Below are positions 3,324 to 12,224 of a DNA stretch of 64,000 nucleotides, piece after piece. The translations under genes were made by a program, and so were the position numbers. The notes under the pieces are model-generated. The model ran no database searches, had not been told where the DNA came from, and saw only the letters and a program-made list of their open reading frames with translations. Each line of letters opens with the position of its first letter. Position 1 is the stretch's first letter. Location: positions 882 through 64,881 of the forward strand of contig NZ_JBLGCI010000015.1 of assembly GCF_047617075.1 (NCBI RefSeq), read 5' to 3'. Origin of the DNA: Brevundimonas sp. (GTDB lineage Bacteria > Pseudomonadota > Alphaproteobacteria > Caulobacterales > Caulobacteraceae).

Positions 3324-3413
3324 TGGCGGACAGAGAGGGATTCGAACCCTCGGTACGCTTTCACGTACACACGCTTTCCAAGCGTGCGCGATCGACCACT
3401 CCGCCACCTGTCC
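3324..3413 (-). tRNA. tRNA-Ser(GGA), 90 nt, encoded CCA
   Basis: Minus strand GGACAGG acceptor stem, D-arm GGAGTGGTCG, anticodon arm CACGC-TTGGAAA-GCGTG, long variable arm, GGTTCGAATCC T-loop, ends TCCGCCA. Confidence 0.95.
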
Positions 3414-8028: not shown

Positions 8029-10677
<2,649 letters not shown>

Positions 10678-10807: not shown

Positions 10808-10902
10808 TGTGGAAAACCCAGCCGATTGATTCAGTTTTGTGAATCGAAGCCGTCCACAGTCTTTCACAGACTTGTGCACCGGACGGCGGGTCCTCATGCA
10901 CA
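10808..10902. promoter_or_regulatory. Cluster of DnaA-box-like 9-mers with two GANTC (CcrM) sites
   Basis: TGTGGAAAA 10808 (reverse = TTTTCCACA, fits TTWTNCACA), TGTGAATCG 10838, CCGTCCACA 10850, TCTTTCACA 10860, TGTGCACCG 10873, TCATGCACA 10894; GATTC 10828, GAATC 10841. Confidence 0.5.
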
Positions 10903-10949
10903 GCGGGAGGAATTCGGGCGCTTGCCGAATAGACGATTTCGCGGGAACG

Positions 10950-11320
10950 TCAACGGGCCGAGGGACACGGCGGCGCGGAAATCCCGGGAGACCGGGAACT
11001 TCAAGCGGGTCGGTCCGGCTCTCTGATCCAGGCTTTCAGGCGTCTTCGGACGGCTCGATTGACCGGACAGGGCCAAGGCTCCCGAACCAGACGCCCTCGG
11101 GCGGAGGTTCACGGAGAACCGGGCCGGGATCGACGGACGACGACAGGGGAGACCCTGACGGAACGCCGAAGACCAGGAGCCGCCAGGAGGCCGCGTTTCA
11201 ACGCCGGGTTCGCCCGCCGGTGAAACGGTCAGGTTCCTGACCCTAAGGTCAAGTCCCAACCCGGACTTGGCGAGGGGACGAGAGCAACGGTTCGACCGGG
11301 CTGTCGTCCCCTCGCTCAAT
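10950..11320 (+). ncRNA. Candidate large structured non-coding RNA (family unassigned; ends approximate)
   Basis: About ten hairpins including GAGA-capped stems (10982-10997, 11144-11157), UUCG stem (11041-11052), GUGAAA loop (11216-11229) and a 12-bp closing stem 11270-11281/11304-11315; no credible ORF. Confidence 0.6.
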
Positions 11321-11360
11321 TCGGGCTCCCGCTAATTCGGCAGTGCCGCCTCAACCGGCC

Positions 11361-12224
11361 TCACCGCTTCTGGCACGTGGGGCACCAGAAGGTGGAGCGG
11401 CCGCCCTGAACCGTGCGGCGGATGACGCCGGTGCAGTCCGGTCTGCGGCAGGGGTCGCCCTCGCGGCCATAGGCGTCGAAGCTGTGCTGGAAATAACCCT
11501 GGCCGCCGTCGGCGTTGGCGAAGTCACGCAGGGTCGAGCCGCCCGCCGTGATGGCGTCGTTCAGGACATTGCGGATCTCGCCGGTGAGGCGCTCGAGCCG
11601 GGGGCGGGACACCTTGCCCGCCGCCGTCAGGGGCGAAACGCCGGCCCGGAACAGGGCCTCGCACACATAGATGTTGCCCAGCCCCGCGACGATGCGCTGG
11701 TCCAGCAGGCTGACCTTGATCGACTGTTTCCGGCCGTGAAACGCCTCGCCCAGATGGGCGGCGGAAAAGGCGTTGCCCAGCGGTTCCGGCCCCAGCCCCG
11801 CGAACCAGGGGTGTGCCTCCACCTGGTCGGTGGCGATCAGGCCCATGAAGCCGAACCGGCGTGCATCGGCGAAGCCCACGCGCGTGCGCCCCGCCGGCCC
11901 CTCGGCGCACAGGCTGACATGTTCGTGCTTGCCGGCGATGGGCGCCGGCTCCTCGAACTCGCCCAGTTGGCGGCCGTCCAGGGTGAAGCGGCCGGTCATG
12001 CCCAGGTGCGCCACCCAGGTCTCGCCGGTGGACAGGGGCATCAACAGATACTTGGCGCGGCGGTCCACCCGCTGCACGGTCGCCCCTTCAAGGCGCGAGA
12101 CGAAATCGCGCGGAAAGGGAAAGCGCAGATCGGGCCGGTTCTGGCGCACATGGGTCAGGTGCGCGCCGGTCAGGATCGGCTCCAGACCGCGCCGCACCGT
12201 CTCGACCTCGGGAAGTTCAGGCAT
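11361..12224 (-). CDS. mutM: Formamidopyrimidine-DNA glycosylase
   Basis: MPELPEVET N-terminus, RRAKYL, HLGMTG, LLDQRIVAGLGNIY, C-terminal Zn finger CRRPDC..CPTCQ. Confidence 0.97.
   Translation of the reverse strand: MPELPEVETVRRGLEPILTGAHLTHVRQNRPDLRFPFPRDFVSRLEGATVQRVDRRAKYLLMPLSTGETWVAHLGMTGRFTLDGRQLGEFEEPAPIAGKHEHVSLCAEGPAGRTRVGFADARRFGFMGLIATDQVEAHPWFAGLGPEPLGNAFSAAHLGEAFHGRKQSIKVSLLDQRIVAGLGNIYVCEALFRAGVSPLTAAGKVSRPRLERLTGEIRNVLNDAITAGGSTLRDFANADGGQGYFQHSFDAYGREGDPCRRPDCTGVIRRTVQGGRSTFWCPTCQKR

Follow-up and report, generated by a model that had tools for sequence, protein, structure and literature searches.

The window considered here is a 64,000-nucleotide (nt) stretch of a Brevundimonas sp. 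genome (Caulobacteraceae), and positions 10956-11321 of its + strand are a structured non-coding RNA gene. The ~366-nt RNA belongs to an uncatalogued family that occurs across the Caulobacteraceae. Comparison with relatives reveals a conserved, strand-specific non-coding fold, an upstream module of DnaA-box-like sites and putative promoter hexamers, and selection that acts independently of the neighbouring genes. On balance we favour the view that this is an autonomous RNA gene of an uncatalogued family that is probably regulated by DnaA and acts in trans.

Locus, extent and strand

The RNA lies in a 683-nt spacer bounded by alaS (8029-10677, - strand) and mutM (11361-12224, - strand), the latter being the next gene after the RNA in the window and convergent to it. 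Searches with a 441-nt query show that the locus is single-copy in its own genome and that 22 of 24 same-genus genomes have a BLAST match at 71-79% identity. Homology to these relatives covers ~10850-11330 and ends at ~11325-11335. An earlier reading of the stretch, made from its sequence alone, had proposed an undescribed large RNA of ~370 nt at this place. That proposal is supported, with no match in Rfam 15 and abundant covarying homologues; the conserved unit is larger than was proposed (~10850-11330), since it takes in the boxes and the putative promoter upstream of the RNA.

For 10940-11330, the folding energy of the + strand is -202 kcal/mol, with z = -4.4 against dinucleotide shuffles, and the - strand of the same segment reaches z = -3.8 against such shuffles. 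Folding energy alone therefore leaves the strand unfixed. G-U pairs are common across the RNA (for example, in 92, 37, 36 and 25 sequences at four pairs), and each would turn into an A-C mismatch if the opposite strand were transcribed, which identifies + as the RNA strand. The homologue alignments thus fix the orientation that the sequence-only reading had assigned.

Secondary structure and covariation

RNAalifold predicts 90 pairs from 21 sequences, 32 of them with compensatory changes. Covariance models were made for the 3' domain (R1) and the 5' domain (R2), with 100 sequences aligned to each. In the 5' domain, 98.0% of cells are paired and 19 pairs have changed on both sides (340 such cells); none of 500 shuffles reaches the observed values, and pairing falls to 18-54% in a control in which partners were slid. 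In the 3' domain, 96.8% of cells are paired and 18 pairs have double changes. Over both domains, 97-98% of predicted pairs are kept and 37 pairs have compensatory changes; covarying homologues, which had been named as a check on the proposed RNA, are abundant. Alignments fitted to R1 and R2 favour the modelled structure; a MAFFT alignment of 21 sequences, which is not fitted to the models, gives the same helices. The RNA and its helices are laid out as follows.

10956-11321, + strand: structured non-coding RNA, recognized from the homology end, covariation, the G-U strand signal and the lack of an Rfam match
10956-11020, + strand: 5' domain, with P1/P2 helices 1-4 98-99.7% paired; covered by the cross-genus model R3
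10956-10964, + strand: 5' strand of P1, GGCCGAGGG
To 11013, + strand: P2, an irregular hairpin with a GAGA cap at 10988-10991
11014-11020, + strand: local P1 partner TCCGGCT, directly 3' of P2
11023-11070, + strand: P3, a CTGATC/GACAG stem with inner GCGTC-TTCG-GACGG (11040-11053) and a UUCG cap
11071-11125, + strand: P4, a GGCC..GGCTC / GAG-AA-CC..GGCC stem with a GCC-CTCG-GGC tip and a CUCG cap
11130-11172, + strand: P5, hairpin CAGGG-GAGA-CCCTG with a GAGA cap
11177-11180 with 11314-11317, + strand: P6, GAGC/GCUC
11193-11229, + strand: P7, a UUCG-capped hairpin, UUUCAAC...GGUGAAA
11242-11250, + strand: long-range P1 partner CCT..GGTC, before P8
11249-11271, + strand: P8, TCAAGTCC-CAACCC-GGACTTGG
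11272-11313, + strand: P9, a GC-rich terminator-like hairpin, GAGGGGACG...CGTCCCCTC, followed by a conserved CUCAAUU tail (to 11321)

Double changes are found in most of these helices. Several P3 pairs have changed on both sides in 25-38 of 99 sequences, 20-33 sequences have double changes in P4 (from AU to GC and from UA to CG), and all eight pairs of helix 3 of the 3' domain, in the P7 region, have double changes. P9 is 97% paired with six doubly changed pairs, and conservation ends just past its tail. P5 lies outside R1 and R2; four of its inner pairs have changed on both sides in 2-8 of 21 sequences (alignment 239-242 with 254-257; pairs 226-271). Fewer data stand behind P5 and the choice of P1 pairing than behind the other helices. 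P8 is nearly invariant among 95 distinct sequences, where its only changes are G-U wobbles.

Every hairpin that the sequence-only reading listed is present where it was placed. Those with compensatory changes in relatives are TCCCGG-GAGA-CCGGGA (10982-10997), CGTC-TTCG-GACG (11041-11052), GCC-CTCG-GGC within GAACC/GGTTC, CAGGG-GAGA-CCCTG, CAAGTCC/GGACTTG (P8) and the 12-bp stem 11270-11281/11304-11315 (P9). Some pairings that were drawn between or around these hairpins need revision. GTCCGG (11013-11018) and CCGGAC (11063-11068) are complementary in this genome without being conserved as partners, since relatives pair 11066-11070 with 11023-11028 within P3 (25-34 of 99 sequences double-changed). 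CCGAGGG (10958-10964) is likewise complementary here to CCCTCGG (11094-11100), a long-range pairing that is not conserved and whose 3' member is the tip of a local hairpin. GCGT-TTCA-ACGC and GCCG-GTGAAA-CGGT are present and are better read as one longer hairpin, P7, than as two.

The 5' strand of P1 has two compatible partners in Brevundimonas: YCCGGCU after P2, which is 97.2% paired, and CCU..GGCC before P8, which is 96.9% paired and overlaps the base of P8. These local and long-range pairings may be alternative conformers. In two of the other genera that have the RNA (g18 and g38; see below), the 5' segment GCCGAGAGG is paired in minimum-free-energy folds with CCUU-GAA-GGC immediately ahead of P8, an arrangement that closes a multi-helix junction. 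Long-range P1 covaries in other genera, with GCC/GGC in ~10 sequences, GUC/GAC in seven and GUC/GGC in six. The strongest sequence constraint falls on the P1/P2 internal loops and the P8 hairpin. The peripheral hairpins have GNRA caps in some cases and UUCG caps in others, and they differ in presence from genus to genus.

Lineage-specific insertions occur within the RNA in four Brevundimonas relatives (L018, L065, L170 and L175). They include ~20 nt in place of the P2 GAGA cap and, in L018, ~55 nt between P7 and P8, and they show which positions tolerate extra hairpins.

Relation to known RNA families

No Rfam 15 family matches the RNA locus at gathering score in a search of the 64-kb window, and at E <= 10 the segment 10600-11450 yields only chance microRNA-like matches of 19-21 bits. 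Seven divergent homologues have no Rfam match, and ARAGORN finds nothing at the locus. The sequence-only reading had noted that signatures of RNase P RNA and transfer-messenger RNA (tmRNA) are lacking, and copies of both are indeed found elsewhere in the same genome: RNase P RNA at C1:252781-253153 (308.8 bits) and a two-piece tmRNA (alpha_tmRNA) at C8:116327-116693 (230.4 bits). The genome's 6S RNA is at C1:198399-198560 (49.5 bits). Literature searches found no description of this Caulobacteraceae RNA.

Distribution within the Caulobacteraceae

Beyond BLAST, covariance models extend the family to three further genera (g21, g18 and g38). Searching 301 family genomes with R2 finds the RNA in 37 of 39 Brevundimonas genomes and in four genomes of g21. 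Model R3, an 80-nt P1/P2 model whose alignment included divergent members, finds it among 401 family genomes in 60 of 63 Brevundimonas, five g21, ~38 g18 and six g38 genomes. BLAST with a g38 copy gives matches in 46 of 121 g38 genomes. An order-wide search with R3 has no credible match outside the Caulobacteraceae and one weak match (E 0.008). The family has >150 representatives with sizes of 240-440 nt.

Forms of the RNA differ between genera, and the three genera other than Brevundimonas have shorter versions of 240-290 nt. The g21 form, at ~240 nt, keeps P1/P2, P7, P8 and P9 and is without P3-P5. In the g18 and g38 forms, at 237-274 nt, a 5' motif UGCCGAGAGGAACUGCGGCGCGG recurs together with several hairpins that have GNRA caps, one that resembles P8, and a terminal hairpin with CUUGCUAU at its end. 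One g18 genome (G197) has two RNA paralogues (L191, L199; C1 at ~557,000 and ~3,395,000), each with its own DnaA boxes. One of these copies follows uup and precedes a transporter binding-protein gene, an order that is common among relatives (see below); the gene upstream of the other ends in RRAPKA..., like the rnd gene beside another g18 copy (L190), and a convergent gene follows it.

Putative promoter, probable 3' end and cluster of DnaA-box-like sites

Upstream of the RNA lie a putative promoter and a dense cluster of DnaA-box-like sites, placed as follows.

10922-10950, + strand: putative sigma-70-type promoter, with -35 TTGCCG (10922-10927), a 17-nt spacer and -10 GAACGT (10945-10950)
10808-10902, no strand assigned: DnaA-box-like cluster of six 9-mers with a TNCACA core, from a motif scan and conservation
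10808-10816, - strand: DnaA-box-like site TTTTCCACA
10838-10846, - strand: DnaA-box-like site CGATTCACA
10850-10858, + strand: DnaA-box-like site CCGTCCACA
10860-10868, + strand: DnaA-box-like site TCTTTCACA
10872-10880, + strand: DnaA-box-like site TTGTGCACC
10894-10902, + strand: DnaA-box-like site TCATGCACA

The putative promoter was recognized from cross-genus conservation of its hexamers. Brevundimonas and g21 have TTGYCN-N17-GAWCGT at a fixed distance from the first helix, ending ~5-7 nt before P1; in g18 and g38 the TTGC-type -35 is kept and the -10 is more variable. This pattern points to a promoter at 10922-10950 and a likely transcription start at ~10955-10957. The 3' end of the RNA is probably at or near P9 (~11321), a covarying GC-rich hairpin that here precedes the tail UCAAUU; terminal hairpins of relatives end in UCCAUUUU or CUUGCUAU.

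The TNCACA cluster at 10808-10902 is the densest in the 3.1-Mb genome, with six sites in 87 bp, compared with four in the next best. The TNCACA core is needed to see this, since a strict scan (<=2 mismatches to TTATCCACA) has no cluster of more than two anywhere in the genome. Relatives have the sites as well. Boxes with <=2 mismatches to TTATCCACA average 2.5 per 155-nt upstream window over 106 Brevundimonas-type loci compared with 0.09 in flanks (28-fold), and 2.39 over 44 loci of other genera compared with a background of 0.14 (17-fold). Perfect TTATCCACA boxes occur in several loci (L194-L196 and L204). The sequence-only reading was therefore right to draw attention to the upstream motifs: in each of the four genera the RNA is preceded by DnaA-box-like sites, whose positions and orientations are conserved. 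Control of the RNA promoter by DnaA is a plausible consequence of this arrangement, as is cell-cycle control of the RNA.

Two GANTC (CcrM methylation) sites also lie in the cluster (10829-10847); they are partly conserved, with GAATC in some relatives and GAATT in others. A replication origin was considered and rejected: the RNA is 89 kb-1.26 Mb (2.5-42% of the chromosome) from dnaA in ten complete genomes, and the window is without a skew signal.

Open reading frames (ORFs) of 138-153 amino acids that match only domain IV of DnaA (model ~332-434, E 1e-4 to 3e-8) occur in the window's own genome, outside the window (G000:C3:60288-60563), and in relatives (G332:C1:1223524-1223805, G020:C1:305840-306112 and G268:C1:1151618-1151890). 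Their distance from the RNA is 6.5-22 kb in three complete genomes. A domain of this kind, binding DnaA boxes on its own, could act as a competitor at the cluster.

Genomic context and probable autonomy

The usual order in relatives is uup, boxes, RNA and an operon for an NMT1-type binding protein (SBP) and ABC transporter. The ABC-F ATPase gene uup is upstream of the RNA in 76 Brevundimonas-type loci, the uup-RNA-SBP order also occurs in g38, g21 and some g18 loci, and in some Brevundimonas-type loci a small secreted protein gene precedes the SBP gene. In the window's own genome this link has been lost. The orthologous SBP gene is on contig C3 without the RNA, preceded by an amidohydrolase gene across a 65-nt gap, and uup is 135 kb from the SBP operon. 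The short spacer before the relocated SBP gene (G000:C3:178954-179030) has a segment, UUCCAAUCCGG, that resembles in the same sense the 3' tail region of the RNA, UCAAUUCGGG; UUCCAAUCCGG may be a remnant that marks a rearrangement breakpoint just past P9.

The sequence-only reading had suggested that homologues be collected through linkage to alaS and mutM. This linkage is of no use, because tblastn finds both flanking genes beside the RNA in its own genome only. Adjacency to alaS is common only to one relative (L176), where a different gene follows the RNA and homology to the window extends no further than the end of the RNA. The alaS/mutM setting is thus incidental, being peculiar to this genome and, on the alaS side, to L176. 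Identity between the window and L176 is 78.2% at alaS third codon positions, 80% in the alaS-proximal spacer, 94.7% in the DnaA-box cluster, 94.3% in the promoter segment and 97.5% in the RNA. Because the last three values exceed those of the alaS third positions and the spacer, purifying selection acts strongly on the boxes-promoter-RNA unit even though its usual operon is gone. In g18, most RNA copies are followed by convergent genes. In L190, for example, the RNA is directly after rnd (RNase D; same strand) and before a convergent ppx (Ppx/GppA-type), where genes (L190:964-1599, - strand; L190:2-547, + strand) were named by eye from their translations.

Alternative explanations

Several observations weigh against an autonomous RNA gene. 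An NMT1/THI5-type SBP gene (Pfam) is downstream on the same strand in 95 of the ~101 loci with enough sequence, out of 108 distinct Brevundimonas-type loci. The layout is riboswitch-like, with a junction possibly closed by P1 and then a terminal hairpin, and P1 can form either its local or its long-range pairing but not both, with equal conservation of the two, as in a switch. A promoter scan with the E. coli consensus flags no site at TTGCCG-N17-GAACGT, and a terminator scan makes no call at P9, which has no canonical U-tract.

The main rival explanation is that the RNA is a cis-acting leader, that is, a large riboswitch or attenuator of the NMT1-type SBP/ABC operon, in which the junction would sense a ligand or protein, P9 would be the terminator and the window copy would be an orphan of rearrangement. 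In addition to the SBP synteny, which extends to g38, g21 and some g18 loci, and the two exclusive partners of the P1 5' strand, this explanation draws on a terminal GC-rich hairpin that lies ~85-100 nt before the next gene and on a precedent, in that a small riboswitch (the NMT1 motif or xanthine riboswitch) controls other genes for NMT1-type transporters. A same-strand 5'-leader location, which holds in those 95 Brevundimonas relatives, fails in the window, where mutM is convergent and the SBP operon works elsewhere without the RNA. The orphan copies here and in L176 show more constraint than the protein gene beside them, convergent genes follow many of the g18 copies, and one genome keeps two paralogues in different contexts. 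Moreover, the RNA would be exceptionally big for a riboswitch, at 240-440 nt and with peripheral hairpins that vary, the upstream gene uup is about equally conserved (76 loci) so that the synteny may be inherited, and by eye no antiterminator is conserved across genera. An antiterminator formed by the 5' segment was considered, since this segment resembles the P9 5' strand by eye in two genera; the resemblance is absent in g38 and is taken as coincidence. Overall, a leader or riboswitch origin appears rather unlikely, and the constraint on the orphan copies speaks against its being the only role of the RNA.

Alternatively, the locus could be mainly a DNA element in which the box cluster titrates or recycles DnaA and the transcript is incidental or modulates access to the boxes. 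Like E. coli datA and DARS, the DnaA-box clusters of B. subtilis and DnaA-regulated promoters, the locus has conserved, clustered boxes outside the origin (here 5-6 DnaA-box-like sites in ~95 bp). It is also the densest cluster in the genome, with box position and orientation conserved in four genera. Unlike datA, DARS and the B. subtilis clusters, it is directly upstream of the putative promoter of a structured RNA gene. A DNA element leaves unexplained at least 37 compensated pairs and strand-specific G-U pairs over 366 nt, as well as the fact that the RNA part is the most conserved segment (97.5%). As a full account it is very unlikely; DnaA titration and an RNA function are not exclusive and could coexist.

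A small protein gene or chance hairpins in a GC-rich spacer can hardly account for the locus: GC-rich DNA folds well on both strands, and ORFs of 133 amino acids (10839-11240, + strand) and 141 amino acids (10894-11319, - strand) do overlap the RNA, which qualifies the earlier claim that no credible ORF covers the region. Among 108 homologues, however, each frame is open in 30% at most, and the lengths of the element fall evenly into the three residues modulo 3. Double substitutions keep pairing far beyond the shuffle and slide controls, and identity is 71-79% across the genus where flanks are not always common.

Proposed mode of action

For the favoured autonomous RNA gene, RNA polymerase would start at ~10955-10957 from TTGCCG-N17-GAACGT and stop at or near P9. 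DnaA bound to the boxes at -55 to -150 would tune transcription, which would link the level of the RNA to replication or to cell-cycle state. The RNA would act in trans, most likely as a protein-binding or scaffold RNA that is recognized through the invariant P1/P2 internal loops and the P8 hairpin. The scaffold idea is suggested by the concentration of sequence constraint in these elements while peripheral hairpins are variable; simple antisense pairing seems unlikely. In most relatives, where the RNA is directly upstream of the NMT1-type SBP ABC operon, it may also gate read-through.

A more specific and speculative proposal, which we consider quite unlikely as it stands, is that the RNA is a DnaA-controlled part of replication or cell-cycle control in the Caulobacteraceae. 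DnaA would switch a stable folded RNA on or off at a defined replication state, and the RNA would bind a protein, either feeding back on initiation (e.g., through DnaA, HdaA or a DnaA-domain-IV paralogue) or coupling uptake of nucleotide precursors to S phase. If true, this would be the first structured RNA dedicated to the DnaA regulon.

Comparison with known systems and significance

Few large bacterial RNAs with an intricate fold and clear covariation are known to us. The raiA motif RNA and the other orphan RNAs OLE, ROOL and GOLLD are likewise long and well conserved, with intricate folds and stable tetraloops; each is confined to one lineage and is often but not always beside the same gene. 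The Caulobacteraceae RNA has no sequence or structure match to them in Rfam 15 and occurs in a different phylum. It alone is coupled to an upstream DnaA-box cluster, and the number of its peripheral hairpins varies by genus (240-440 nt). The abundant 6S and Ms1 RNAs, which bind RNA polymerase, offer a possible analogy as housekeeping protein-binding RNAs. The canonical 6S RNA is elsewhere in this genome, however, and the fold in the window is a multi-hairpin junction rather than a long duplex with a central bubble.

The NMT1 motif (xanthine/8-oxopurine riboswitch) is a small two-stem RNA of ~50-60 nt. It resembles the window RNA in that the latter is upstream of an NMT1/THI5-type transporter gene in most relatives; the window RNA has no Rfam match, is much larger and persists without the operon. 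Another point of comparison is CcnA, the cell-cycle non-coding RNA of Caulobacter crescentus (PMC8959179). Both are Caulobacteraceae non-coding RNAs whose promoters have sites for a master cell-cycle or replication regulator. CcnA is reportedly ~180 nt long, located at the origin and driven by CtrA, and is said to base-pair through loop motifs. The window RNA is two times longer and is far from dnaA; its boxes are of the DnaA type, not the CtrA type, and it has the look of a compact folded molecule, unlike a small RNA that pairs through a seed.

Past large bacterial RNAs proved to be ribozymes, riboswitches or ribonucleoprotein cores. For the present family, the minimal 240-nt and expanded 370-440-nt forms together define a core. 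We know of no described DnaA-box cluster that is dedicated to a non-coding RNA and of no other structured RNA with a conserved DnaA-box array as its regulatory signature; this array gives a concrete hypothesis that ties the RNA to replication control. Because its hosts are relatives of the Caulobacter cell-cycle model and are amenable to genetics, its function, partner and regulation lend themselves to direct testing. Should it be a leader RNA, NMT1-type transporters would have a new cis-regulator of unusual size.

Elsewhere in the 64-kb window, the sole Rfam match at gathering score is an 87-nt tRNA with a long variable arm (3327-3413, - strand).

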